This document shows, in pieces, positions 19,379 to 36,696 of a DNA stretch of 39,934 nt. Location of the stretch: NCBI GenBank assembly GCA_964453345.1, contig CAYVOC010000013.1, positions 1 to 39,934 on the forward strand, in the 5' to 3' direction. The translations under genes and the position numbers were made by a program. Positions within the stretch are counted from its first letter, which is position 1. Each line of letters opens with the position of its first letter. The notes beneath the pieces are model-generated. The model saw only the letters and a program-made list of their open reading frames with translations. It searched no databases and was not told where the DNA came from. Source of the DNA: an uncultured Aquificales bacterium. GTDB lineage: Bacteria > Thermosulfidibacterota > Thermosulfidibacteria > Thermosulfidibacterales > Thermosulfidibacteraceae.

Positions 19379-20467
19379 TCACTCCACATATAAAAAGGAG
19401 GAGGCACCCATTGAGAAGAGGCAGAAGACCTCATAGGGTATGGTTCCCATCCACTCGGCACACTCAAAAACGCTCACGGCCCCCTCTCCCTCCCCGCCAA
19501 GGATATAGACCCAGTCTCCCTCGCAGGCCTCAACCGAGTCCAGATCGATAACGGTAAGATCCATGCAAACCCTGCCCAGGACCCTGCACCTTTTACCATT
19601 TACCAGAACCTCAGCCCTGTTGGAAAGACTCCTCAAGAAACCTGTGGCATATCCACAGGGGATAACCCCAACCCTTCTTTTCCTATCAGCCACATAGGTT
19701 CTCCCGTAACTTATGCTCCACCCCTCAGGAACGGTTTTAACATCCAGAAGCCTCGTTCTAACGTGCATAGCCTGCCTCAATCCGGGATAGGAAATGCCGC
19801 CGTAAAGGGCTATTCCCACCCTCGCCCCGTCAAAGGCCGCCTCCGGGTAAAAGAGAACCCCCGCCGAATTGGCTATATGGGCAACCTCCACCCCCACATC
19901 CGAAAAGAGAGAAACCGCGCCCTTGAAGGCATCTATCTGTTTAAGGGTGAAACTTCTGCTCTCCTCATCGGGTTCATCCGCCACCGGAAAGTGGCTCATC
20001 ACACCCACCGCCTTAATCCACTTCAGAGACAGAAGCCTCTCCTTCAGAGGCTCCCACTGCTCTGGAACAAAACCGAGCCTTCCCATTCCCGTATCAATCT
20101 TAATGTGAACCTCCAGAGGCCTCCTCCTGCAGGCAGCCTCCCTCTCCAAGGCCTCAAGCATCCAGAAGGAGCCTACAGAAGGGGTGAGACCATAATCGAA
20201 GACCAGCCCCACCTCCTCAGGCAGAAAGCCTCCCAGAAGCAGAACCTCACCGCGATAAAACCTGCGGACCAGACTCCCTTCCGAGGTGGAAAAGACAGCT
20301 AAGGCATCCGCACCCCCCTCAGTAAAGATCCTCGAACAACGGGTTATGCCATGGCCGTAGGCGTTTGACTTGACAACGGCATAGAGCTTGCCCTTAACCC
20401 TCTTTCTCACAAGGGCTAAATTATCCCTCAGAGCGTCTGTATCCACAACAACTTCCGTCCAGCCCAT
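19379..20467 (-). CDS. alr: alanine racemase
   Basis: AVVKSNAYGHG (PLP Lys), HIKIDTGMGRLG, SISYG, GRVCMD, TIPYE; ATG at 20467 preferred over TTG at 20482. Confidence 0.95.
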   Translation of the reverse strand: MGWTEVVVDTDALRDNLALVRKRVKGKLYAVVKSNAYGHGITRCSRIFTEGGADALAVFSTSEGSLVRRFYRGEVLLLGGFLPEEVGLVFDYGLTPSVGSFWMLEALEREAACRRRPLEVHIKIDTGMGRLGFVPEQWEPLKERLLSLKWIKAVGVMSHFPVADEPDEESRSFTLKQIDAFKGAVSLFSDVGVEVAHIANSAGVLFYPEAAFDGARVGIALYGGISYPGLRQAMHVRTRLLDVKTVPEGWSISYGRTYVADRKRRVGVIPCGYATGFLRSLSNRAEVLVNGKRCRVLGRVCMDLTVIDLDSVEACEGDWVYILGGEGEGAVSVFECAEWMGTIPYEVFCLFSMGASSFLYVE

Positions 20468-20491
20468 ACAGAAGACCGCCAAAGGCCCGGG

Positions 20492-21775
<1,284 letters not shown>

Positions 21776-23038
21776 CTAAGCCTCCCTCAAATGGGAAAGT
21801 ATGTCGGATTCCGGGACCTCCATGGAGGTTCCCTCAAAAACATCCATAACCAGCAGGTATCCCCTTTTCTTGAGTTCATCCGAAACAACCACAACCCTTC
21901 TTATACCATGAATCTTAGCATACTCCACCGAAGCCGAAAGATCCCTCTCAATTATGTCCCTTGCAACCCTGAAACCCTCCCTCCTCAGAAGAGCGGCCAG
22001 GGCAACCCCTCTATCCTTCACCTCCGATGTGTCCACTATAAGAACATCAACGGGCCTGCCCCGGAAACTGTTTCCCTCAAGCAGAGCCGCCCTGTATAGG
22101 GCCTCAAGGTTGAAGGCAAAGCCCATGCCCGGCTCCTCCGACCCGTAGGCCCTCATCAGATCATCGTATCTTCCACCAACGGCAACCCTTTTCCCCACTC
22201 CTTCAACAAAGACCTCAAAGAAGAATCCTTTATGGTAGGTCATTCCCCTTATCTCGGAAAGGTCAATGAGAATGTTCTTCAAAAGTCCGTATTCCCTAAG
22301 AACCCTGACAACAGCCTCAAGCTCATCAAGGTATCCCTCAAGGCCCGATCCCGCAAATACCCTTTTTATCTCACCGAGCCCATCTGGACCCACCACAAGA
22401 TCGGGCAGAACCATTATGAGCCTTTTCAAGGAACTGTCCGCATCGGATATGTAGGCCCCAAGCTCCTTCTTATCCTTCCGTGCAAGGGCAAAGGCTATCC
22501 TTTTTCTCATTCCCGGATCAAAGGCGGACAGCAGCTCCCTGATGAAGCTGACGTTGCTCAGAACGATTGTGTATCTCTGTATGCCAAGGCCCTCCAGCAC
22601 CTCCTCGGATATGGCGATAAGCTCGGCGCACGCCTCAGGCTTATCAAGCCCTATTATCTCCAGCCCTATCTGCTTTATCTGCTTGGAGTAGGAGGTGGTC
22701 TTCCCCAGCCATCTGAACACACTTCCCTTGTAAAAGAGCCTCAGGGGCCTCGGCATCTTCCTGAGGATGGTGGCCGCAATCCTGGCAACCTGGGGGGTAA
22801 AATCGGGCCTCAAAACGATGATGCGCCCGGTCTCCCTCTCAATGAGCTTAACAAGGGCGCCCTCCAAGGACTCGTCTATGCCCTTATACACATCGTCGTA
22901 GTATTCGAATATAGGCGTCCCCACCTCCCTGAAGCCCCAGCGGGAAAAGACATCCTCAACCCGGGATCTTACCAGCTCAAGCCCCTCCTGAGCCTCAGGG
23001 AGGCTTATGGAAACCCCCTTCGGTATAAGCCCCTGCAA
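21776..23038 (-). CDS. hisZ: ATP phosphoribosyltransferase regulatory subunit HisZ
   Basis: HisRS-like fold (TPIFEY, LRPDFTPQVARI, QIGLEIIG, GGRYDDL, GMGFAF) with degenerate motif 2; conserved hisZ-purA adjacency; TTG start. Confidence 0.88.
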   Translation of the reverse strand: MQGLIPKGVSISLPEAQEGLELVRSRVEDVFSRWGFREVGTPIFEYYDDVYKGIDESLEGALVKLIERETGRIIVLRPDFTPQVARIAATILRKMPRPLRLFYKGSVFRWLGKTTSYSKQIKQIGLEIIGLDKPEACAELIAISEEVLEGLGIQRYTIVLSNVSFIRELLSAFDPGMRKRIAFALARKDKKELGAYISDADSSLKRLIMVLPDLVVGPDGLGEIKRVFAGSGLEGYLDELEAVVRVLREYGLLKNILIDLSEIRGMTYHKGFFFEVFVEGVGKRVAVGGRYDDLMRAYGSEEPGMGFAFNLEALYRAALLEGNSFRGRPVDVLIVDTSEVKDRGVALAALLRREGFRVARDIIERDLSASVEYAKIHGIRRVVVVSDELKKRGYLLVMDVFEGTSMEVPESDILSHLREA

Positions 23039-23048
23039 AACCGCTACC

Positions 23049-24647
23049 TCAATTGAGATTGACCATCTTCACATCAATGATGTTGGGAAGCTGCCTGATC
23101 TTCTCCAGAACCTCCTCGGGAACAGGATCGTCAACGTTGAGAAGCGCCACCGCCATCTCACCGGGCTTGAACCTCCCAAGCCTCATGCCGGCTATATTTA
23201 TCCCGGCCTCGCCCAGAATCGTTCCTATGCGGCCTATAACGCCGGGTCTGTCGTAGTTGGTCAAGTAAAGGATGTATCCCGCAGGCTCAGCCTCCACCGG
23301 GAACTGGTTGATCATAACGATCCTCGGAGCGTCCCTCTTTATAAGGGTTCCCGCAACCGACACCTGCTTGCCCTCTCCCTTGAGGATAATCCTTATGAGA
23401 CTCACATAGCCCTCGGTGGACTTGGAACGCTTCTCAACTATCCTTATGCCTCTCTGCTTGGCTATATACTGGGCATTCACCATGTTCACGCCATTTCCAA
23501 GAATGGGCTTGAGTATCCCCACAAGGGCAGCGGAGGTCAGGGCCTGGTAGATCCCCTCCTCCAGCACCTCCCCGGAGTATTCAACCTCCACCTCCTCCAT
23601 CCTGCCCTCGTATATCTGGGAGACGAGGAGCCCGAGCTTTGTGGTGAGATTGAGATAGGGCTCGGCCTTGGGAATGAGTTCGGGCTTTATGGAGGGGACA
23701 TTCACCGCATGCTTTATAATACCCCGCTTGAAGTAGTCTATGATCTGCTGGGCGATGGCTACGGCGACAACCTCCTGAGCCTCCCTGGTGGAAGCCCCTA
23801 TGTGGGGCGTGCATATCACATTGTCAAGCTTCAAAAGCGGATTGTCGGGAGGGGTGGGCTCCTGCTCAAAAACGTCAAGGGCCGCACCCGCAAGATGGCC
23901 GCTTACAAGCACCTCATACAGGTCGTCTTCCTTTACAATGCCACCCCTTGCGCAGTTTATGAGGAAGGCCCCCTTCTTCATCTTCATGAGCCTCTCTTTG
24001 TTCAGAAGATGCTTGGTTTCAGAGGTTAGCGGGGTGTGAACGGAGACAAAGTCCGCAGTCTCAAGCAGCTCGTCAAGATCAACAAGCCTCACACCGAGGG
24101 ATGTGGCGGCCTCCTCCGAAATGTAAGGATCATAGGCTATAACCTCCATGTTCAGGCCCTGGGCCATTTTGGCAACGTATGAGCCGATCCTGCCTATCCC
24201 CACTATTCCGAGGACCTTGTTCCTGACCTCAACCCCCATGAACTTCTTCTTCTCCCACTTGCCCTGCTTCATGGATGCGTTGGCCTGGGGGATCTTCCTG
24301 GCGAGGGCCATGAGCATGGCTACGGCGTGCTCCGCGGCAGCAACGGTGTTGGCTCCGGGGGTGTTCATAACAACAATCCCCTTCTCCGTTGCCGCCTCAA
24401 CATCTATGTTATCCACACCGGTTCCCGCCCTGCCTATAACCTTCAGTCTTGTCCCAGCCTCTATGATCCTGCGGGTGACCTTGGTGGCGGAGCGAACGAT
24501 CATGGCATCGTAGTTCTCTATAATGGCGACAAGCTCGTCCTCCTTGAGCCCCGTCTTCACATCAACCTCAAAGTCCTGCTCAAGGGTTAAAAGCTTCACA
24601 CCCTCATCGGAGATCTTATCGCAGACCAGAACCCTATACACGGCCAA
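23049..24647 (-). CDS. serA: D-3-phosphoglycerate dehydrogenase (long type with ASB and ACT domains)
   Basis: GRAGTGVDNID, GIGRIG, NCARGG, TPHIGAST.EAQ, C-terminal ACT DRPGVIGRIG; TTG start with SD GGAGG. Confidence 0.96.
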   Translation of the reverse strand: MAVYRVLVCDKISDEGVKLLTLEQDFEVDVKTGLKEDELVAIIENYDAMIVRSATKVTRRIIEAGTRLKVIGRAGTGVDNIDVEAATEKGIVVMNTPGANTVAAAEHAVAMLMALARKIPQANASMKQGKWEKKKFMGVEVRNKVLGIVGIGRIGSYVAKMAQGLNMEVIAYDPYISEEAATSLGVRLVDLDELLETADFVSVHTPLTSETKHLLNKERLMKMKKGAFLINCARGGIVKEDDLYEVLVSGHLAGAALDVFEQEPTPPDNPLLKLDNVICTPHIGASTREAQEVVAVAIAQQIIDYFKRGIIKHAVNVPSIKPELIPKAEPYLNLTTKLGLLVSQIYEGRMEEVEVEYSGEVLEEGIYQALTSAALVGILKPILGNGVNMVNAQYIAKQRGIRIVEKRSKSTEGYVSLIRIILKGEGKQVSVAGTLIKRDAPRIVMINQFPVEAEPAGYILYLTNYDRPGVIGRIGTILGEAGINIAGMRLGRFKPGEMAVALLNVDDPVPEEVLEKIRQLPNIIDVKMVNLN

Positions 24648-24653
24648 CCTCCC

Positions 24654-25790
24654 TTATCTCCAGAGGATTTCCTGGGCCCTCTTGACCCCGGCGCCCATCT
24701 CAAAGTTGGTATAGCCCAGCTCTTTAAGAACGCCCTCCACGGCGCCTATAACGCTCAGCATATCAAACTTGGTGACGTATCCCATGTGAGAGATCCTGAA
24801 GATCTTGCCCTTAAGTTTCGCCTGGCCTCCCGCTATTATAACGCCATACTTCTCCCTGAGGAGCTTGGGAATCTTAGCCCCATCTATACCCTCCGGGACC
24901 TTCACGGCCGTCACAGCCTCGCTGGGGGACTTGGAGAACAGCTCAAGGTTGAGGGCCTTCATCGCTTCCCTTGTGGCCTCAGCCAGAAGGGCATGACGGG
25001 CAAAGACATTCTCAAGCCCCTCCTCCTTTATAAGCCTCAAGGTCTGACAGAGGCCTATGATCAAAGATACAGCAGGGGTATAGGCAGTCTGGTTCTTGGC
25101 CTGGCTCTTCTTTTCCTTTCTGAGATCGAAGTAGTATTTGGGACACTTGGACTGCTCGGCGGCCTCCCACGCCCTGTCGCTGAGGGTTATGAAGGCCAAA
25201 CCGGGAGGCAGCATAAAGGCCTTCTGAGAACCGCTCACAACAACATCCAGACCCCACTCATCCGTTTTCACATCAAAGACCCCAACGGCGGTAATTCCAT
25301 CCACGACGCTCAAAACCCCCTTGGCCCTGCACAGCTCCGCCAGCTCCTTGGTGGGGTGTTTTACACCGGTTGAGGTTTCACTTGCCTGCCAGAAAACGGC
25401 CTTGACCCCGGGGTTCTGATCAATGGCCCTCTCAACATCCTCAACCTTTACCGCTTCACCCCACTCAACATCAACGTTAACCGGTTCAACACCATATGCC
25501 TCACATATCTCGGCCCAGCGCTCCCCGAACTTGCCTCCCCTCACACACACAGCCTTGTCCCCGGGGGAGAGCAGATTGGCAACGGCAGCCTCCATGGCTC
25601 CGGTGCCCGAAGAGGCAAGGATCAAAACGTCCCTCTCCGTCTGAAAGACGTATTTCAGCCCCTCCCTCGCCTCCGCAAATATGGCCTCAAACTCGCTCGT
25701 CCTGTGGTGCAGTATGGGCTTGGCCATCTCAAGGGATGCCTCCGGCGGCACCGGCGTTGGTCCCGGAGCAAAAATAAATTGTTTTTTCAT
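24654..25790 (-). CDS. class V PLP aminotransferase (serine-pyruvate/alanine-glyoxylate family; probable phosphoserine aminotransferase)
   Basis: PGPTPVP, SSGTGAMEAA, SETSTG, VSGSQKAFMLPPGL (PLP Lys), FRISHMG. Confidence 0.9.
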   Translation of the reverse strand: MKKQFIFAPGPTPVPPEASLEMAKPILHHRTSEFEAIFAEAREGLKYVFQTERDVLILASSGTGAMEAAVANLLSPGDKAVCVRGGKFGERWAEICEAYGVEPVNVDVEWGEAVKVEDVERAIDQNPGVKAVFWQASETSTGVKHPTKELAELCRAKGVLSVVDGITAVGVFDVKTDEWGLDVVVSGSQKAFMLPPGLAFITLSDRAWEAAEQSKCPKYYFDLRKEKKSQAKNQTAYTPAVSLIIGLCQTLRLIKEEGLENVFARHALLAEATREAMKALNLELFSKSPSEAVTAVKVPEGIDGAKIPKLLREKYGVIIAGGQAKLKGKIFRISHMGYVTKFDMLSVIGAVEGVLKELGYTNFEMGAGVKRAQEILWR

Positions 25791-25835
25791 GGCAAGTCCC
25801 CCCTTTGTGCACTTTTTCTCTAATTCGGAGTTTTT

Positions 25836-25882
25836 GGTTTACCACGAAAAGACTTGCAGTTCAACAACACACCTGCTACGGA
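25836..25882. promoter_or_regulatory. overlapping divergent sigma-70-like promoters
   Basis: Minus strand TTGAAC-N17-TAAACC (25864-25836) and plus strand TTGCAG-N17-TACGGA (25854-25882); both have TGn before the -10, but the -10 boxes are imperfect. Confidence 0.35.
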
Positions 25883-25890
25883 AAAATTCC

Positions 25891-26799
25891 ATGGGAAGGA
25901 TAGGCATAGAGGGGGTAAAGGCAGCCGTCTTCACGGACAGGGAAAACCTGACGGGGGCCACAGCCCTCATCTTTGAAAGGGGAGCCGTCGGATCGGCTAT
26001 CCTGCTCGGGGGCGGCACCAGCACGAGGGGTTTTGATTCTCTAAAACCCGATGCCCCGCCCACAAGAATCTTCGCCTTTTTGGTAAGCGGCGGCAGCTCC
26101 ATGGGGCTCGACAGCGCATCGGGGGTGGTAAGATACCTGAAGGAAAGGGAGCTGGGACTTCCCATTGATCATGTCAGAATCCCTTTGGTTTCAGCCTGCA
26201 TAATCTTTGATCTGTTTGTGGGAAATCCCGTCCCTCCGGATCCGGAGATGGTCTATGAGGCGTGCAAAAAATCGGGGGATTTTATACCGGATGGCCCCTT
26301 TGGAGCCGGAACGGGGGCCACGGTGGGCAAGCTATACACGGTCAAGCGAGCCTCCCCCGGCGGGCAGTGCTACGAGGAGATAGCCACAGAATCCTTCAGG
26401 ATAGGCTGTCTGTCTGTGGTCAACGCCTTCGGAGACATTGTGGAAAGCGGAAAAATCATATCAGGTGCCAGAAACGAGCGGGGCGAGTTTGTCAACAGCG
26501 CCCGGAAAATAGCGGAAGGGGCGACCCGCAAAATACCCTCCATAACGGGTCAGTCCACAACCATCTGCTGCATCATAACAGACGCAAGGCTCACGAAGCC
26601 TGAGGCCTACAGGGTTGCCGTAACAGCAGCAGCGGGCATGGCGAGGGCGATAGATCCCGTGTGGACCATCTACGACGGGGACATTGTAGCGGTGCTCTCC
26701 GTAGGCGACCGCAAAGGGGACATAACGAGGCTGGGCACCCTCGGCGCCCGGCTCGTTGAGGAAACCATCAGAAAAGCGGTAACCTCCCACTTTCTGTGA
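25891..26799 (+). CDS. P1/S58 family (DmpA-like, DOM-fold) peptidase
   Basis: SGGSSMGL, IIFDL, GAGTGATVGK, VNAFGD, STT nucleophile site, DGDIV; ATG at 25891 avoids a head-to-head overlap with the aminotransferase. Confidence 0.88.
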   Translation: MGRIGIEGVKAAVFTDRENLTGATALIFERGAVGSAILLGGGTSTRGFDSLKPDAPPTRIFAFLVSGGSSMGLDSASGVVRYLKERELGLPIDHVRIPLVSACIIFDLFVGNPVPPDPEMVYEACKKSGDFIPDGPFGAGTGATVGKLYTVKRASPGGQCYEEIATESFRIGCLSVVNAFGDIVESGKIISGARNERGEFVNSARKIAEGATRKIPSITGQSTTICCIITDARLTKPEAYRVAVTAAAGMARAIDPVWTIYDGDIVAVLSVGDRKGDITRLGTLGARLVEETIRKAVTSHFL

Positions 26800-26810
26800 T
26801 TGGTTCTACT

Positions 26811-27572
26811 TTATCGATTCTTGTGGTAAATGATGCGGAGACCCTCCAAGGTGAGCCAGGGATCCACAAGGTCTATCTTGCTGCTAACAGAGGCCACAAC
26901 CTCCGCAAGACCGCCTGTGGCAACCACCCTGCAGGACCCGATCTCCCTCTCTATCAAGTCCACCATCCCATCCACAAGGCACACGTAACCGTAAAATATG
27001 CCCGATTTCATGCTATCAACAGTGTTTTTTCCGATAACGCTCTTGGGCTTTGAAAAATCTATCCTCGGAAGCTGGGCCGTCTCCTTGAACAGGGCCTCCA
27101 TGGATATGGCTATACCAGGAGATATGGCACCTCCCAGATACTCGCCCTTGGCCGATACAACATCAAAGGTGGTGGCGGTTCCAAAGTCCACAACCACAAG
27201 GGGTCCCCCATACTTGCTGTAAGCAGCCACCGCATTCACAATCCTGTCGGTCCCCACCTCCTTAGGATTATCCACCAGAATGGGCATCCCCGTCTTCACA
27301 CCCGGCCCCACAACAAGTGTGCCTATGCCGAAAAGCATTCTTATGGCCCTGACCACCACACCTGTGAGAGGGGGAACGACGCTTGACAGAACGGCCCCGT
27401 CTATGCTTTTCGGATCCATTCCCTCAAGCTCAAAGAGAACCTTCATCCAGGCCGCAAGCTCGCAGGGGGTTCTCCTCCTATCGCTGCTTATCCGCCAGGA
27501 TGAAACGAGCTTATCGCCCTCATACACGCCCACAACTATGTTTGTGTTTCCCACATCAACCACCAGAAGCAT
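26811..27572 (-). CDS. coaX: type III pantothenate kinase
   Basis: [49 protein letters not shown]. Confidence 0.95.
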
Positions 27573-27969
27573 TTCCTTCCCTCTCAAGGTAGGATTTCAG
27601 GATCAAGGCAGCGGCAAGGGCATCCACCTTCTTCTTTCTCTTCTTCCACGAAAGCCCCGCCGATCTCATCACCTCCTCGGCCTCAAAGGAGGTGAGCCTC
27701 TCGTCAAAGAAGACCACTTCAACCCCGATGGATCTTAGGGATTCCCCAAAGGCCCTTGCCCTTCTGGCCATCTCACCCTCTGTCCCGTCCATGTTCAGAG
27801 GAAGCCCCACCACTATACGCTCCACCTTCCTCTCCTCAACGAGACGGGAGATCTCCTCCAAGGCCCGGGATCTGGGAACAACCTTGAGGGGCTGGCTTAT
27901 GAGGCCCAAGGGATCACTTAAGGCGAGGCCGACCCTCTTCTCCCCGTAATCTACCGCAAGGACCCTCAT
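27556..27969 (-). CDS. ruvX: Holliday junction resolvase-like / pre-16S rRNA nuclease RuvX (YqgF)
   Basis: [42 protein letters not shown]. Confidence 0.95.
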
Positions 27970-27982
27970 GGAAGATGGAACA

Positions 27983-28001
27983 GGGGACCCACCGGGCCCC
28001 C
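27983..28001 (-). promoter_or_regulatory. stem-loop downstream of UGA; candidate bacterial SECIS element
   Basis: GGGGGCCC-GGU-GGGUCCCC, loop begins 21 nt after the UGA of the FmdB-family gene, no downstream U-tract. Confidence 0.55.
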
Positions 28002-28014
28002 AAAACTATATGGC

Positions 28015-28203
28015 TCATCCAAAGGAGGTGCACCCAGAGCCAGAAGACGCTGAAGAACCTACACTTCCAAAGGGGGAAAAGACCCTCTTAACATCCTGGC
28101 TGCCGCAGTGAGGGCACTTAACCTCCTGTTTGTCCTCAAGATTCAGAACAAGCTGGGAGAACCTTTTACCACAGGACTTGCACACAAACTCATAAATGGG
28201 CAT
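28015..28203 (-). CDS. FmdB-family zinc-ribbon protein (CxxC_CxxC_SSSS); may extend to 28006 via Sec readthrough
   Basis: [12 protein letters not shown]...CPHCGS..V.RVFS, Ser/Gly-rich tail with Cys; SD GGAGGTG. Confidence 0.9.
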
Positions 28204-28222
28204 ACCGGCATCACCTCCAAAG

Positions 28223-28546
28223 CTAACCGATATGCCTGTCTATTATAGCCTTTATGGTGTCCTTGGGCTGAACGCCCACCATCTGCTCAACCACCTTGCC
28301 GTCCTTGAAAAGCAGCAAGGTGGGTATAGCCCTTATGCCATACCTTATGGCAAGCTGAGAACACTCATCAACGTTGACCTTCCCAACCTTCAGCTTGCCC
28401 TCATACTCCTCGGCTATGGCATCAATGACAGGCGCTATCATCCTGCAGGGAGCGCACCAGGTAGCCCAGAAATCCACCAGCACAGGTATATCTGACTGGA
28501 GCACTTCCTTGTCGAAGTTCTCTTCCGTAAAGGTAAGAGTTGCCAT
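28223..28546 (-). CDS. trxA: thioredoxin
   Basis: [39 protein letters not shown]. Confidence 0.96.
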
Positions 28547-28583
28547 CTTCGCAACCTCCCAAGATTGCTTACAGTCAAAAATA

Positions 28584-28659
28584 TGGTGCCGGGGCCCAGA
28601 ATCGAACTGGGGACACGTGGATTTTCAGTCCACTGCTCTACCAACTGAGCTACCCCGGC
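28584..28659 (-). tRNA. tRNA-Phe (GAA), CCA encoded
   Basis: GCCGGGGTAGCTCAGTTGGTAGAGCAGTGGACTGAAAATCCACGTGTCCCCAGTTCGATTCTGGGCCCCGGCACCA; 76 nt, full cloverleaf, anticodon GAA. Confidence 0.98.
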
Positions 28660-28679
28660 ACCAGTTGGCTGCAAGGGTT

Positions 28680-28708
28680 TCTTTATTACCATAATGTGAT
28701 GCTGTCAA
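28680..28708 (-). promoter_or_regulatory. possible sigma-70 promoter for tRNA-Phe-trxA unit
   Basis: Perfect TTGACA (28708-28703) overlapping the csrA stop codon; -10 region AT-rich but imperfect (TAAAGA at 17-nt spacing). Confidence 0.45.
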
Positions 28709-28941
28709 GTCCCGGATACAGGTTTTATCAGATCCTCAAGTTTATCCAGATCCACCTTAGGAGAAACAGCCGCCTCATTCTCCCTCTTTATGGCCTCGTA
28801 AACCTCCTTGCGGAACACGGGAAGCTCTCTGGGCGCCTTTATGCCCAGTTTAACGCTTTTGCCGCTTATGCCCAAAACCTTTATCTCTATGTTGTCCCCT
28901 ATGATGATGCTCTCTTCAACCTTTCTGGTTAGAACCAGCAT
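28705..28941 (-). CDS. csrA: carbon storage regulator CsrA (FliW-responsive type)
   Basis: [23 protein letters not shown]...VKLGIKAP...R44...N55 and C-terminal extension. Confidence 0.97.
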
Positions 28942-29365
28942 CTCTTCTCACTATCCTGTATTTTATGGGATAACTGTCGTCGGGTATCACCACCTGCTTG
29001 GCAAGCCTCTTCTTTCTGTTTATCACGATGGGGCCCCTGAGGTTCGCCGTCATCTCCTCCGGATTATCAGGTATCACCACTATCACATAAACTTCCGCAT
29101 CCTCAGGGCTCTCTATCTGAAGCTTTTTGACATCCTCCTCCTCTATGGGCACCACATAGTCCGGCTTTATCAGCTTGGGATTTATCACCACAAAGGCAAG
29201 TTCCCCGTTATCCACCGACTGTAGCCACTTGAAGGGACTGCCCTCCCTGTGGTTGATAAGCACATACCTTTTGGCGTAAGGGAAGCCGAGTATCGGATCC
29301 ACCATGGTTATTATCTGGTCCTCGGAAACCTCAATCTCTCCAAATCTGGTTGTCTTTACCAGCAT
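28916..29365 (-). CDS. fliW: flagellar assembly factor FliW
   Basis: [38 protein letters not shown]. Confidence 0.96.
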
Positions 29366-29370
29366 CCTTC

Positions 29371-32300
29371 CTACCTCAGAAAGTCCAGAAGTGTTGGTGT
29401 GAACAGCCTGACAGAAGCCATAAGGGCGGATCTCAGCGCCATCTGCGCCTTCTGAAGCTCCATTGTGGCCTCCGCAAGATCCGCATCCTCAAGAGGAGCC
29501 TTGGCCTCAACCGTCTTCTGCTTGTATATCTGGTAGCGGTTCCTTGCCATCTTCACCGCCTCCATTCTCGCTCCCACCTCGGTCCTTCTGCGAAGCACCT
29601 GCTGATAGGCCTCGTCCAGCTCACCCACATTCTCGGTTATACCAGCTCCCACCTTAACTTGAAAGCTGTCGCCCGATTTTATCTGGCCCGAGCTGAAGGT
29701 GAGATAGACACCATCCCTCACGTAATACTGCCTGTAGGGGTCCTTGACCACGAGCTGCTTCACCAACCTTCCCTTAGAATCGGTGATGCTCACAAGAAGA
29801 TTGCTCTTTTTGTCCTCATCTATGGGCGCATAGCCGTTGGGGGTGGTTCTGACGGTAAGTTTTCCCTCAAAGCTCACATACTTTATGTTGCTGTAGCCGT
29901 TCCAGCTTGCGGTGTTCTCGCCTTCAACGGCTATATCTATCTTGCCCTCAAGAACCAGCGTTCCGGAGGCGGTGTCGCTGCTGACAATACTTCCCCTTTC
30001 AAGATAGACCCTGTATTTGGAACCGGGGGGAGCGTTGAGGGTTATGGACGAGGTTGTGACCGTATCTGTTTCGCCGTTGTCAAGGGTTATGGTGAAGGGC
30101 ATAGCCGTTCCCGCATCTAAGGTCACGTTATTTGTGGTGACGAGGAACTCTTTTTCCGCAAAGAAGCTGGTGTAGCCGTTGCCTATAACCTTCACCCCGG
30201 AGCCCGTATCCCTTATCACATCCACCTTCACATTCCAGGTGGTGTTGTAGTTTCCTGCAAACTCACCGTCAAACATGGGCAGAAGGGTGGTCTTTATAAC
30301 CTCTCTTTCCTGAACGCTCTTCCAATCGCCGGGCATGCCTATGGATCTTCTCGGAATGTTTTCGGCGTTGGCATCCCTCAAGTTCTTCACGATCCTGAAA
30401 ATATCAACCCCCTCCCCCTCCTTCGCCACGTAAAAACTGCTGAATATGTTTCTGACGCCCGGATCGGCGGCGGATATGCTGAGTTCAAAGAGAGATTTCC
30501 CCCCCATAACATCCTTGAAATAGAGAATCCCGTCCTTCACGTATCCCTTGACATGGTATCTGAAAAGCTCCTCCACCCTGTTTATCACATCCTTCAGCTT
30601 GTCAACCTCGGACTCCGCCACGGCCTTCCCGCCATCAATCCTCACATTGGGGAAGAAGTTCACAAGAAAGCCGGAAGGATCAAGCTCCAGCCTGAATCTG
30701 TCACTGGTGCTCACAAGCTGAATGCCGCCCTTTCCATCGGTCCTTGCAGACACACCTATAGAGGAGGCGGCCTTATTTATGCTGTATGCCAGCCTCAGGG
30801 CGGTATACTCGCCGGGCTTCATGTAGCCTTCGTGCTGCATAACATACACGTTGCTTTCCGCATCCGGGGAGAGTCCCATGAGATACAGAGCCGGATGGTC
30901 TGAGGTGGAGGTTTCGGCAAAGGTTATTCTGCCTGTGTCATACAGAGAGACCATCCTGTAGTCCGTATCCCCCTCCTTCACCATGGCAACGGGGGGCAGA
31001 TCCGCTCCCGCAGGGCCGCTCCAGTTGCCGGGATCGTTCCACGACTCCACAAGATCATCGATGGTCACTATATCGCTGGGTGCCTGCCACACAAAGGTCC
31101 CCACGCCGCTGACGGAGACGGACACGGTGGTCCCCGCCGATATCTCGTCGAACAGCCTGGGCGCTATCCTCTCATAGGTGTATAAAGGATGCGAAACCTG
31201 GGTTGCGGATGCGGTCACCTCAACCGAATTTGTCCCGGCGGTTATCTTAAACACTTCATCGGAGGGTGTATAGGTGTAAACGTTTCCCCAGACCCTCTGG
31301 GAAACCGTGTAGTGCGGATCCATGCCCCAGCTGCCAAGCCCGGAACCGAAGCCGAGATAATCAGAACCCTCCTCTTTAACGAACAGGTAATTATCTCCCG
31401 GATTTATAAGGTAAAAGACTAAATGGTCCCCCTCCGCCTCCACCTCCACCCTGTCCCTGAGCTTATCGTTGGCGTCAAGCTGCGCCTTAAGGACATCCAC
31501 CAGCTTGTCCATGCTCTCGTAGCTTGCCGGAAGGGAGATGGTCACGGATGCACTCACAAGGGATCCGCCCTCATTGACAAAGAAGTCGAGCCTCAAGGAT
31601 CCGCTTGAGGAACCAAGCCCCTCAAAGTCCACCGCCCTTGGCGCCACAACCCTTGCAGCGCCCGCAACCTCACCACTGTGCCCCACTCCCTCTATCCTGA
31701 ACCTTGCCCCTGTAAACTGGTTCAACCTGTCCATGGGCATGGACTCGTAGAAGGGAAGATCGCCGTAGGACTGGGAAGCGAGAACCCTGTGGGAGGGCTT
31801 GAACAACCCCTCCCCGGGAACATTGACCGTCACCCTGTTGTCGTATCCTATCTGGACCTGCTGCTCACCGTCGTTGCCGTAGTAGGCTATATCACCGCCC
31901 CTCACATACCCCAGATTTATAACCTGAAGCCTGTCCAGCTTTGAAATATCGAGGCCGTTGAAGTTTATCACGATACCCCTTCCGGTATCGTAGGTTCCGT
32001 AAATCTTCCCATTCACAACCGAGGGCTTGATCACCGCCCTGTCCGCAAAGACGTTGTGGTTTCTACCGCTGTCGTCCGAGCCGTTGGAGTCTATCTGAAC
32101 GATCCTCCCCTCCTCGTTCTCAACCCAGACGGCAACCCCGTCGGTCCCCTCGCGCTTCAGAAAGATCCTGTAATTGCCCGTTTCGAACTGGTATAGGTCA
32201 GAGAAGCTGTCCCCAACCTCGATCTTTATATCGGGAGCTATCTCCTGGGGAATGTATCCGAGCTTTATCCTGTTCTTCTTTGCAACCTCAAAGGGAGGAT

Positions 32301-32724
32301 CCGTGGTCTTCGTTCCCGCGAATATATACTTATCCATAACCTTCGTATTTCCTATATCCACAAGCTCCTCAAAGATCTGATCCAGCTCATGGGCTATGGC
32401 GTCCCTGGAATCGGCATTCTGTGAGTCGTTGGCACCCGTCAGGGCAAGCTCCCTCACCCTCTCAAGGTATCTGTCCATCTTGTCAAAGGCGGAATCGGCT
32501 GCACCAAGCCACGCATCGGCGCTGTCCATGTTCTTCAAGAATCTCTCCATCTCCTCTATGCTGCGCCTAAGATTGATGATCTGGGAGGTATCGGAGGGTG
32601 CATCGCTGGGATACTCAAGCCTCTTGCCGGAAGAGAGCTTGTAGGAAGCCTTCTCCAAGGATTCCATTATCTCCTGATGCATCCTCAAAAAGCGCTCAAC
32701 CAGAAGATTGTTGGTTATCCTCAT
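29371..32724 (-). CDS. flgL: flagellar hook-associated protein 3 FlgL, unusually large (1117 aa)
   Basis: Flagellin-N-like start MRIT...LSSGKR...[15 protein letters not shown], internal YYGNDG...VNVPGEGLF, flagellin-C-like end (EVGARME...LEDADLAEA...TLLDFLR); directly after flgK. Confidence 0.93.
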
Positions 32725-34469
32725 CTACCCACCACTCCCATACCGTTGATGACCCTGTTCATCATCTCATCAACGGTGGTTATGTAGCGGGCCGCCGCCT
32801 CATAGGCCCTCTGAAACTTGAGAAGGTGAGTGAACTCCTCATCAAGATTCACACCGGAGACCGACTCCCAGCGGTCCTCCAGAAAGTTCATGTATCTTTC
32901 GGTGTCGTCCTTCACATCCTTTATCCTCGCAACCTTAGCCCCTATTTCGCCCACGGTGGCGCTGTAATACTCGCCGAAGGTCCTGTCGCCCTCCATGAAC
33001 TTGCCGGACGCCAAGGAGGCTATCTCCAAGGCTATGGAGTTGTCCCCGGAATTGGGGGTGGAACCTGCAGCCACCAGCATGTGGTTGGTGTCTATCAGGG
33101 TGTTGATCCTTAAACTATCGATGCTGTCCCCCACAAAGAAGCTGTTTATCCCCATGGAGACGAGAAAACCGGAGGTATCCTCGCCAAAGGACAGGGTGTA
33201 TCCCGGAGAAGCCTTCACCACGAGTCTGCCGTCGTCGGTTATGTAGGCATCAACATTGCCCATCTTGTCTATCTTATCGGCGATAAGCCTCAGAGGATCA
33301 TCGGGAGAGACCTCTATCATTCTGGACTCAACAAGATTGCCAGCCTCATCCCAGACCCTCACCTCAAAGGCGCCGTAGGTGAGCCTATCTGCAAAAAACA
33401 GCCCCTCGGCACTCCTCAAAGGGGCATCGGGATCGTCAACGGCAGCCGCACTGGTGACAGATCCAAGGTGCACCAGCCCGATACCCGAAACATGCTTGTA
33501 ATTCACCCTGTAGGCGATCTCAGAAATCAGCCTGTCGAGCTTGGATATATACTGGGCGGATATGTTGACGATTCCGTTTATGGTTCCCCCGATCTTACCC
33601 TTGATAACCGTCGTGATATCCTCGCCCGAAACCGTAAGCTTGAGGTAGTCCCTTTCGTAAAGATTTCGCCTATAATAGGGAACGTTGTTGAGAAAGCCCA
33701 CCTCCTTCCTCTCCAGGTCCCCCGGCTCAAACTCTATGGTTCTGTAGTTCGCCCCGTCAACAAGGGAGATGCCATTGGCAAGAAAGACCTCAACCCCCTG
33801 CCCGTTCTCGTAATAGTAGGCTCCGGTAAGCTCGGTGAGCTTCTTCAGCTTGTGGTAAAGCTTGTCCCTGAGATCGTTGGCCTCCTGAGAGCCTACCTCC
33901 GCCTCCTTTATCCTGCGATTGAGACCGGCTATCTCCTTCACAAGGGTATTGACCTGATTTACCCACTCTTTGACCCTCTCAACCCCATCGTTTATGGTGT
34001 TCTCAAGGGCGGTTTTGGCCTCCCTGAAGGCACCCACGAGCTGCTGTCCCCTCTCAACCACCTCATCCCTTGCGGTTGTGCTTTCGGGCTGGGTGGAGAG
34101 GATCTGCCAGGCGTTCCAGAATTTATCCATAACCTCCTCAAGGCCCATGTTCTGATGCTCGTTGAAGGTGGCCTCAACGGAGGTTGCAACCTTCTCCAGG
34201 GCATCCCAGAAACCGTATTCACCCTTCTCAAGGGAGAGGCGCCTATCAAGCACCCTGTCTATGACCCTTTCAACCCTGGCCACATCGACGCCGGATCCGA
34301 ACCTGAGGCTACCCTCCCTGTAGGTGGGGGCCTCCTCAAAAACAGCCCTCCTGCGGACATACCCCGGCGTGTTTATGTTGGCCAGGTTCTCACCGGCAAC
34401 GCTCATTGCCCTCTGATGGGAGAGCAACGAGGATTTGCCCACATTCAAAAGCCCGAACAGCGTAGGCAT
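32721..34469 (-). CDS. flgK: flagellar hook-associated protein 1 FlgK
   Basis: [44 protein letters not shown]...[10 protein letters not shown]. Confidence 0.96.
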
Positions 34470-34471
34470 CC

Positions 34472-34942
34472 CTATCCCCTTAAGCGCAGTTTTCCGCCCG
34501 AGTAATCGGAACAGAGGTTCCCATTGGGGCCATAAGATAGGCTGTAGCAGGAAGAGAAAATTCTCATCAGATCCCTGTTCAGCTCTATGGCCTTGTTCAG
34601 CAAGAGGGCGTTCCTCTTATTCTCCCAGATAAGATTCTCAGCCGCCTCCTTCAATCTCTCCGACAGCTTTTCAAGCCTTGCCCTGTCGGAAGGGGCCAGC
34701 TCCTCCATGAGCTGGCTTACCGTGTATCCCTCCTTGCCAGCTTTCTTCAGACAGCTCAGCCTCGCCTCCTCAACCAGCTTGTGCCTGACCCCTAAGGTCT
34801 CCTTCCTTTTGGCTATGCTGAGCAGCCTGCTGTAATCCGAGGAGACAATGGCGTCCCTCTCCTCCGCGAGAAGCCCCCTCATCTCCTCAAGAAGGGCCAG
34901 CTCCTCCTCAAGCAACCCTATGAGCCTGTCAAGCCACCTCAT
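34472..34942 (-). CDS. flgN: flagellar export chaperone FlgN
   Basis: Helical protein with E...I....L...K pattern, [10 protein letters not shown]-terminal Y...G; between flgM and flgK. Confidence 0.85.
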
Positions 34943-35271
34943 CTCACGATCTTGTCAATAATGTTCTCCCGCACCATCCCGTAGGCGGTCCTCTTCGCGT
35001 TGGCCTGATAGGTTCCCTGCTGGACCTGCTGCCTGATCTGCTCAACCATCTGGGCGCGGGCCTGCTCCTGCTGCCTCAGCTGCATCCTCATCCTCTCGGC
35101 GTTTCTGGCCTGCTGGGAGATCTCAACCCTGTCCGCCCTTGCAGGAGTCCGCCTGTTCTCGGCCCTGTCAGCTCCCTGCTGATCCCCAGCCTGACGGGCC
35201 CTGTTGGTGTTTCTGACTGCATCCTGCTGCACATACTGGTAAAGCTGCTGCACCCTGTTATTAACCTTCAT
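34939..35271 (-). CDS. flgM: anti-sigma-28 factor FlgM
   Basis: DRVEISQQA and [19 protein letters not shown] (sigma-28-binding motif); ATG at 35271 with SD GGGGAGGTG; between flgJ and flgN. Confidence 0.88.
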
Positions 35272-35611
35272 GACGCACCTCCCCCTTGAGTTTGGTTCCA
35301 TCGTTATATATCGGCAGAGGTGCGTCCTTTCTGTAGCCCTGGGAAAACTTTTCGTAGATCCTTCTGCCGATGTAGGTGTCAGAACTCTTAGACAGAAAGT
35401 CCGAAAGCCTCCATATGACCAGCTGGGCGTATATGCTCTTCTCTCCCCTGCTGTTGAAGAAGGATCCCTTGGGCAAACTCTTGAAAGACTCCTTCAGAAC
35501 CTGCTGCCACAGCATACTCTCAAAGGCATCCGCCGCATCCCTGACGCTTCTTATATCCGGCGCCACCCTCTCCCAGTAGCCTCCCTGAACCACAGCCTCC
35601 GCCCTCATCAC
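35261..35611 (-). CDS. flgJ: short FlgJ (rod-binding domain only, no muramidase)
   Basis: [24 protein letters not shown]...F, directly after flgI. Confidence 0.8.
35308..35335 (-). promoter_or_regulatory. sigma-28 (FliA) promoter for flgM, embedded in flgJ
   Basis: TACA-N16-GCCGATAT, 36 nt upstream of the flgM ATG. Confidence 0.75.
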
Positions 35612-36696
35612 ATCACCTCCAGATCACCCTCAAGGGCACCGGCCGCCTTAATGGCTCTCAAGATGGCTATGATGTCCCTGGGGGAAGCCCCCACCCTGTT
35701 GAGGGCATTGATCAGATCGCTGACCTTCACCTCCCTCTTGCCCATACCTATGGCGAACACGGGCCCCTTCTTCTCCTCAACGGAGAGCTTAGTCTGCTGA
35801 GTCACAACGGTGGATCCGCCGCTCAGCGGAGGAGGCTGGGAGACCACAGGGGCGCTTTCAACCTTAACGGTAAGGCTGCCATGGGAAACGGCAACCGGCA
35901 GTATCCTCACATCGGCTCCCATGACAATGGTCCCGGTTCTTTCGGATATAACAATCTTCGCATTAGCATCCTGGGTGGCCTCAAGCTCCTGAACCTGGGC
36001 GACAAAGTCCACGATCCTTCCCCTGTAGTCGGGGGGAACAACCACCCTCACCGTGGCGGGATCCACAGCCCTCGCAACACCCGGCCACACCCTGTTTATG
36101 GCCTTGGCTATCCTGGATGCGGTCACAAAATCGGGAACGTTCAGGTTGAAGTTTATAACCCCTGTATCGGTGAAGCTTGCAGGAAGAGGTCTTTCAACAA
36201 TCGCCCCGTTGGGGATGCGCCCTGCAGTCGGATGGTTCTTCTGAACCTTCTGGCCGCCGCCCCTTGCGTTGAACCCGCCTATGGAGACAGGGCCCTGGGC
36301 AACGGCGTATATCTTGCCGTCGGGACCGAAAAGCGGGGTCATGATCAGGGTTCCTCCCTGAAGAGAGTCCGCATCCCCTATGGAAGCAACATCAACATCT
36401 ATCTTCATGCCCGGCTTGGCGAAGGGTGGAAGCTTGGCCGTGACGATAACCGCCGCAACATTGCCCACATCCACCTTGTCAGCAGGCACATGAATCCCCA
36501 GCCTCTCAAGCATGTTGGAGATGGTCTGGTAATACATCTTGGTGTCATCGCCCGTGTCGTCCAGCCCAACCACAAGGCCGTATCCAACAAGCAGGTTCTC
36601 CCTGACACCCTCTATGGTGGTCAAATCCTTTATCCTTGCGGCAAAGGAAGCCACCGCCGCCGAAAGAAAAAGCACCACAAGCAACACCCGCCTCAT
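35608..36696 (-). CDS. flgI: flagellar P-ring protein FlgI
   Basis: Signal peptide, RIKDL...[44 protein letters not shown]. Confidence 0.97.

Follow-up and report, generated by a model that had tools for sequence, protein, structure and literature searches.

A zinc-ribbon gene between trxA and ruvX

The window, by which we mean the whole stretch of 39,934 nucleotides analysed here, carries on its minus strand a small gene of the FmdB/TIGR02605 zinc-ribbon family. Its ATG stands at 28203, 7 nt behind a Shine-Dalgarno-like GGAGGTGA (28211..28218, minus strand), and the frame reads TGC ACC TCC TTT GGA at 28032-28018 before reaching an in-frame UGA at 28015..28017, where gene callers end the gene. 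Two sense codons, GCC ATA, lie between this UGA and a UAG at 28006..28008, exactly as a sequence-only reading of the locus had described. With the UGA as the putative codon of a selenocysteine (Sec), U63, and the UAG as the true stop, the gene spans 28006..28203, and its product very probably has 65 amino acids and ends C58-TSFG-U63-AI. Public collections carry 62-amino-acid truncated records of this protein, which bears out the earlier suspicion that standard gene callers cut it short; the 90% cluster to which it belongs includes a 62-amino-acid record from Thermosulfidibacter takaii that ends at the same place at the protein level.

The protein scores 61 bits against TIGR02605/PF09723, above both curated cut-offs (31.3 and 34.4). 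Members of the family have two CxxC motifs about 17 residues apart and a low-complexity tail; here the motifs are 18 residues apart (C8/C11 and C30/C33), and a disordered Ser/Gly tail of about 20 amino acids ends in C58-T-S-F-G-U63-A-I. All four ribbon cysteines are encoded by TGC or TGT, that is, there is no Sec inside the ribbon. In the AlphaFold model, the ribbon has pLDDT values of 72-88 per 10-residue block, and the tail, of low confidence from about residue 45, has values of 49-58. Structure searches returned generic zinc-ribbon or rubredoxin-like matches only, none of them at E 0.001 by Foldseek.

Immediately upstream, at a distance of 19 nt, lies the thioredoxin gene trxA (28223..28546, minus strand), with a WCAPC active site and a TIGR01068 score above the cut-off. 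Downstream and co-directional is ruvX/yqgF (27556..27969, minus strand; profile match to TIGR00250), followed by an ORF that we take to be type III pantothenate kinase-like. A tRNA-Phe lies just upstream of trxA at 28584-28659 (minus strand). Beyond it, the minus-strand ORFs at 28705-29365 are presumably csrA and fliW, and those at 29371-34469 presumably long flagellar hook-associated genes; among these, an ORF that we take to be flgL-like is unusually long, at 1117 amino acids.

The candidate selenocysteine insertion element (SECIS) is a hairpin at 27983..28001 on the minus strand, separated from the UAG by TTTT and lying wholly 3' of that stop, inside the 36-nt gap ahead of ruvX. An 8-bp stem (28001-27994 with 27990-27983), made of seven Watson-Crick pairs and one G-U pair, closes a GGU loop (27993-27991) that begins 21 nt past the UGA, and the predicted folding energy is -16.3 kcal/mol. 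The bSECIS model, as given in PMC13188914, asks for a loop of 3-9 nt with a G in its first two positions, a stem of 4-16 bp, a distance of 16-37 nt from the UGA, and a minimum free energy of at most -7.5 kcal/mol; this hairpin, with its 3-nt loop, lies within all four constraints. A strict bSECIS rule of our own fires in the genome at only 7 of 1298 stops of long ORFs and at 451 of 52516 TGA triplets. By itself, the hairpin is no more stable than shuffles of its GC-rich 50-mer (z = -0.37; 64/200 shuffles equally stable), so the case for Sec rests on the homologues. A terminator scan did not include it among its predictions, and a U-rich tract follows the stem in only 7 of 90 homologous hairpins, in line with the sequence-only reading, which had judged it a poor intrinsic terminator and had correctly given its stem, loop and distance from the UGA, as well as the position of the gene just downstream of trxA. 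The ruvX start at 27969 is likewise 13 nt past the stem, as that reading had it, and SelB binding or ribosome passage might thus influence ruvX translation. There is no visible Shine-Dalgarno motif ahead of ruvX in 27970-27982.

Selenocysteine machinery and conservation of the UGA

The genome, assembled to 99.9% completeness, encodes the machinery that the earlier reading had proposed looking for: selA, selB, selD and tRNA-Sec (selC) are all present above curated cut-offs, with selA and selB side by side on contig C3, selD on C8 and tRNA-Sec on C10. Two selenoproteins of known type accompany it. The gene of SelD itself (G000:C8:32047-33075, minus strand) contains a TGA in frame, followed by a GGA-loop hairpin with its loop at 20 nt, and a TxxU peroxiredoxin (G000:C48:3954-4592, minus strand) has a GGUC-loop hairpin at 17 nt, built like that of the zinc-ribbon gene. 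These two are the only SECIS controls within the genome, since its FDH and NiFe hydrogenase matches contain no in-frame stop in the matched stretches. The second TIGR02605 gene of the genome (G000:C2:19372-19506, locus L023) encodes 103 amino acids with a long Cys-free tail, ends in TAA and has no SECIS-like hairpin.

We compared 208 distinct FmdB/TIGR02605 genes, counted after removal of duplicates and with six loci (L078, L084, L185, L222, L229 and L238) left out. They were classed only by the protein tail before the first stop: 109 have a single Cys in the tail, 58 have several and 41 have other tails. The boundary of the single-Cys class, a Cys 3-12 residues before the stop, was fixed after the tails had been seen; in an earlier, stricter class, 24/24 genes ended in TGA. 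The later loci were gathered as best matches to an alignment of TGA-ending proteins, and kin among them are not independent. With that proviso, TGA is the first stop in 109/109 single-Cys genes vs 56/99 others (32/58 multi-Cys and 24/41 other tails; Fisher p 3e-17). In 108/109 of the class vs 23/99 others, the next 1-6 codons bring a second stop (in the remaining gene of the class it comes at 7), and this stop is divided among TAG (38), TGA (37) and TAA (34). The CxxxxU spacing proposed earlier applies to our gene and is the commonest in the class (31/109); it is not a fixed feature, the Cys-to-TGA spacing ranging over 3-12 residues. Named records with this ending come from Desulfobacterales, Desulfobulbaceae, Thermodesulfatator, Anaerolineae and Desulfurobacterium. 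The groups outside the class include Sec-type variants, for example L168 and L188.

The hairpin follows the same division. Under the strict rule it occurs in 78/109 single-Cys genes vs 3/99 others (one multi-Cys, two other), with 1.5% in shuffles, and under a relaxed rule in 90/109, with 4.9% in shuffles; most of the 19 genes that fail the relaxed rule fold a shorter or bulged stem. Among the 90 hairpins, the distance from the UGA to the loop G is 16-24 nt, and the base after this G is G or U in 89. Covariation was assessed by anchoring on three inner pairs and scoring three held-out pairs, which avoids circularity: the held-out pairs form in 99, 103 and 88 of the 109 genes, compared with about 30% of shuffles, and full stems form in 63/109 single-Cys, 1/58 multi-Cys and 2/41 other genes, compared with 0.2% of shuffles. 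Each stem position shows five or six kinds of pair. The features for which the earlier reading had suggested aligning homologues are found among them: the TGA with its short tail, the hairpin, and Cys at the matching position.

Cys-ending homologues, with C-x4-C-x2-4 or a close variant, make up 8 of the best 150 cluster representatives, the Cys being matched by spacing within a low-complexity tail; 96 of the 150 end like the truncated Sec form, judged from the protein alone. Many FmdB paralogues end in CxxC-x4-CxxC, and some further genes appear to place Sec within this motif. L192 and L206 read C-S-T-C-S-S-F-S-TGA-A-x-C-R, with the TGA at the third Cys (CxxC-x4-UxxC), and in L142/L194 and L191 the TGA falls at the second (CxxU-x4-CxxC). 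The simplest reading is that C58-x4-U63 may correspond to the middle pair of the four-Cys motif. In a FastTree phylogeny of the first 48 residues (206 rows), tail types are clustered, with 21 changes between single-Cys and multi-Cys tails vs 42-54 in 30 shuffles; 48 residues are too short to order the events. Two FmdB paralogues lie in selA clusters, L193:2838-3059 directly after selA (G206) and L194:3935-4153, which has an internal TGA, three genes after it (G170). L244:403-621 has no upstream Cys, and its TGA-A-G-G-C-stop with a strict hairpin is a possible UxxxC variant.

Within the order, an orthologue is present in 12 of 17 other genomes, all 12 of them selA-positive. Each ends C-x3/4-TGA, followed by two or three codons and a stop, and each has a hairpin with G first in its loop at 17-22 nt, although the stem sequences differ. 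Two genomes of the sister genus (G004 and G007) are without selA and selB, and there trxA lies 15 bp from ruvX with nothing between; the absence of the gene from this Sec-negative genus counts as one event, a gain or a loss, in the predicted direction. In the three further genomes without an orthologue (G005, G008 and G017), ruvX gave no match either, and their assemblies probably miss this locus. Outside the order, where profiling covered the phylum of G054 and the class of G053, selA was found in 115/120 and 72/79 sampled genomes and in the genomes of 38/47 loci outside the single-Cys class; because it is near-universal in these samples, its co-occurrence is weak evidence there. The genome of L053 gave no selA match but has selB, and a Sec-type tail is carried by L188, whose genome gave no selA match.

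Reading of the UGA as selenocysteine, which we put at a probability of about 0.93 and which would make this a selenoprotein gene, is supported by the machinery, the invariant TGA, the covarying hairpin, the Cys homologues and the absence of the gene from the Sec-negative sister genus. The 65-residue product ending C-T-S-F-G-U-A-I that the sequence-only reading proposed is thereby strengthened by machinery, homologues and covariation, as a prediction from sequence. In the usual bacterial manner, SelB bound to the G-loop hairpin would bring Sec-tRNA to the UGA, and the ribosome would stop at the UAG, so the SECIS would sit in the 3' untranslated gap. Recoding by SelB is established for a SECIS placed shortly after the true stop, with SaoC as a precedent in the account of bioRxiv 2022.07.06.499078.

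The main alternative is that the UGA is a real stop, with the second stop as a tandem backup and the hairpin as a terminator or an RNA-processing or stability element. TGA is indeed the commonest stop of long ORFs here (611/1298), no part of the hairpin falls within the ORF, a U tract does follow the stem in the 7 of 90 homologues, and all public records examined end at the TGA. However, a real stop cannot explain why TGA is found in 109/109 genes while the second stop is spread evenly over three codons, nor the fixed distance of 16-24 nt and the G[G/U] of 89/90 loops, nor the Cys at the matching position and the absence of the gene from the Sec-negative genus, and we regard this explanation as very improbable. 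Less probable again is that the UGA is read as Cys, Trp or Gly through an alternative code or a suppressor tRNA. Some homologues have Cys at the Sec position, and UGA recoding as Cys is known in some bacteria; against this, the hairpin has a SelB-type loop and spacing, the only UCA-anticodon tRNA found by ARAGORN is tRNA-Sec, and the predominance of TGA among stops indicates table 11, which rules out an alternative genetic code.

Relation to known selenoproteins and a second candidate

FmdB is a listed selenoprotein family, as the earlier reading had it, and yet the listed form is another protein. FmdB selenoproteins were predicted from Global Ocean Sampling (GOS) reads by Zhang and Gladyshev in 2008 (two sequences in PMC2398784), and the entries in PMC9312934 and PMC13188914 give them as TIGR02605 with U/CxxU or UxxU and no accession. 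The representative in the deep-Sep supplement (PMC12013277), MPIYEYSUQEU..., has UxxU in the ribbon. Our gene shares with this form the TIGR02605/PF09723 domain family and the predicted bacterial UGA and SECIS recoding. In the GOS form, Sec takes the place of zinc ligands in the first CxxC, whereas here the four ribbon Cys are kept, Sec would stand in a tail of the form C-x(3-12)-U, at 1-7 residues before the C-terminus, and the SECIS overlaps or lies past the true stop; identity with the GOS form is rejected by the TGC and TGT codons of the ribbon. Under the rule stated in PMC13188914, proteins that carry Sec at different positions belong to distinct subfamilies, and by that rule the tail form is one of its own. 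The available parts of the literature describe FmdB selenoproteins only in the GOS form, and the tail form is absent from the full 119-family table of PMC13188914; the Sec-tailed FmdB is thus apparently an uncatalogued subfamily. The "FmdB" of PMC11227280 is, going by the part of that paper available, an unrelated enzyme subunit.

Several other families, SaoC (NF040734), KCU-star (NF033934) and UXX-star 1/2 (NF041114 and NF041211), resemble the tail form in having Sec near the C-terminus and a SECIS past the stop, and differ from it in fold. In SaoC, which PGAP does not predict, the stem has 7 bp and the loop is GGU, according to the available text of bioRxiv 2022.07.06.499078. UXX-star 2 (NF041211), a glutaredoxin-type model, has no match in the genome, and identity with it is rejected. 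NF041197 (OS_HP3, hypothetical protein DW) is likewise small, with two CxxC motifs and Sec, and occurs in Desulfobacterota, but its Sec lies between the two CxxC motifs (RxU/GxU); it was rejected on a best score of 13.8 bits against a cut-off of 40, with no match in the genome, where the control models were also silent. In NCBIfam 20.0, six read-through proteins gave no selenoprotein model above cut-off among the matches listed (25 of 29 for two of the proteins), and none of the four C-terminal-Sec models named above appeared among them.

A hairpin scan of the genome pointed to a second protein of this kind, of the XRE-type helix-turn-helix (HTH) class, with the tail C-F-S-F-G-TGA-G-TAA (G000:C9:39942-40181, plus strand; L118:3943-4182 in the locus set). 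Its tail, C-FSFG-UGA-G, is near-identical to the C-TSFG-UGA of the zinc-ribbon protein, and its hairpin has a GUC loop at 19 nt. In this genome the hairpin shares sequence with the end of a convergent gene, but relatives have other DNA downstream. The family has five orthologous loci (L119-L123), each ending F-G-TGA-G-TAA and each with a Cys that precedes the TGA by two or four residues. The strict hairpin rule fires in four of the five, on stems of differing sequence; the fifth has a bulged stem. Nine of nine database homologues end at the same place, one of them a record named from T. takaii, and neither of the two Sec-negative genomes (G004 and G007) gave a match to the gene. With its conserved and covarying hairpin, the HTH protein is probably another C-terminal selenoprotein missing from the catalogues, observed in this family alone. 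No Sec-bearing transcription regulator is listed among the 119 families of PMC13188914, the 2026 review.

Possible functions of the predicted selenocysteine tail

The closest studied look-alike of the zinc ribbon is Ruc (Rv0991c; Becker et al. 2020, PMC7448276). In the published account, as available, Ruc combines an N-terminal four-Cys zinc ribbon of about 50 amino acids with a variable disordered C-terminal tail of 7-61 residues, an architecture also found here, and its cysteines are numbered C8, C11, C29 and C32, where ours are C8, C11, C30 and C33. It binds one zinc and releases it on oxidation, after which it holds unfolded proteins, an activity that needs the disordered tail. Homologues are reported in the same source from 100% of Thermodesulfobacteria and Chloroflexi and 86% of Deltaproteobacteria, and the Sec tail is common in these same lineages. 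The available description of the Ruc tail includes no Cys or Sec, in contrast to C58 and U63 here, and it places Ruc genes beside chaperone genes (in a minority of loci in some phyla), whereas Sec-tailed genes adjoin thioredoxin genes. Because the comparison covers Cys numbering and architecture only, membership of the Ruc family is a lead.

Gene neighbourhoods bear on the same question. Within the order, trxA adjoins the gene in 12/12 distinct loci. Outside it, 16/67 Sec-tail loci have trxA or trxB at a distance of up to about 1.6 kb, vs 1/44 multi-Cys loci (p 0.002), and the other 51/67 Sec-tail loci have neither nearby. Over the same distance, dnaK, dnaJ, grpE and clpB are absent from all 149 loci. 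The Pfam scan covered 76 of 156 listed neighbours, leaving out in-order loci and ORFs that seemed spurious or repeated, and gave a mixed picture, with OsmC, DsbD, NifU-N, CsoR/RcnR-type, ArsR, CutA, ZnuA and FTR1 among housekeeping genes. In one Desulfobacterota group (L025, L026, L031, L045, L129 and L130), the Sec-tailed gene lies between a divergent phosphoribosyltransferase gene and a co-directional ABC ATPase gene; we take the ABC ATPases near Sec-tailed genes to be SufC-like. These neighbourhoods favour redox over chaperone partners. The thioredoxin link in the earlier suggestion of a thioredoxin-recycled redox or metal sensor thus gains support from gene order, and it remains an inference.

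The functional reading that we favour, by analogy and at somewhat less than even odds, is a thioredoxin-reset Cys/Sec redox switch of Ruc type on the disordered tail. Sec63 would react with peroxide or other oxidants and close a selenenylsulfide with Cys58; the flexible tail would trade its oxidation with the zinc-binding Cys, and release of zinc would bring about the holdase state, as in Ruc. The co-transcribed thioredoxin is the proposed reductant that would reset the tail. Mammalian thioredoxin reductase carries a flexible C-terminal Gly-Cys-Sec-Gly arm; its Cys and Sec are adjacent, where here they form C-x4-U, and the comparison is one of analogy and not homology, in that a flexible Cys/Sec pair could shuttle redox equivalents. 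Two observations weigh against a Ruc-like function: the lack of dnaK, dnaJ, grpE and clpB beside the 149 loci, and the shortness of the tail here (about 20 amino acids).

Two other functions would also be compatible with Sec insertion. The tail may be a site for soft metals or metalloids (Cu, Hg, Zn, Fe-S related) that remains, in reduced form, from the second metal site which CxxC-x4-CxxC makes in the paralogues, and the protein may be a metal carrier or sensor and not a redox-switched chaperone. The four Cys of the paralogue tails, the intermediates that put Sec at Cys positions of that motif, and neighbours such as CsoR/RcnR-type repressors, ArsR, CutA, ZnuA, FTR1, NifU-N and the ABC ATPases that we take to be SufC-like speak for it; yet only two soft ligands are left in the tail, the most frequent counted neighbours are thioredoxin-system genes, and the metal genes are scattered and were counted without a control class. 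We rank this possibility below the redox switch, as a serious but less likely alternative. Lower again, and in our view unlikely in either of its forms, stands a role in selenium handling or sensing, in which the ratio of full-length to truncated product would report Sec supply, or the tail would carry selenium from thioredoxin-reduced selenide to SelD. Truncation at the UGA would leave the zinc ribbon intact, the HTH protein of the same genome has a similar tail, and two paralogues lie in selA gene clusters, but those paralogues have tails of the four-Cys type and belong to the other class, and no sel gene lies beside the zinc-ribbon gene in the ORFs of 20000-36000 or among the 76 scanned neighbours.

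If the redox switch is the function, selenium would be linked to a family whose studied look-alike, Ruc, is an oxidation-switched chaperone. The tail form is widespread (109/208 genes; 96 of the best 150 representatives) and may be a large uncatalogued bacterial selenoprotein subfamily whose proteins are truncated in RefSeq and UniRef for cultured strains (T. takaii, Desulfurobacterium thermolithotrophum and Thermodesulfatator spp.), and work on the annotated protein would then miss the predicted reactive residue. A simple rule, a UGA with a second stop within six codons and a G-loop hairpin, exposed the HTH candidate, which suggests that C-terminal Sec may be systematically undercounted. More speculatively, and with the odds against the idea taken as a whole, a C-x(3-8)-U-x(1-4)-COOH tail with its SECIS in the 3' UTR could be a portable thioredoxin-reset switch on small non-enzymatic proteins, which would make the zinc ribbon a selenium-controlled Ruc-type holdase in several anaerobic phyla and the HTH protein a Sec-bearing transcription regulator. 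Tails of this kind would be a hidden part of the selenoproteome, since a Cys/Sec search depends on homology past the UGA.
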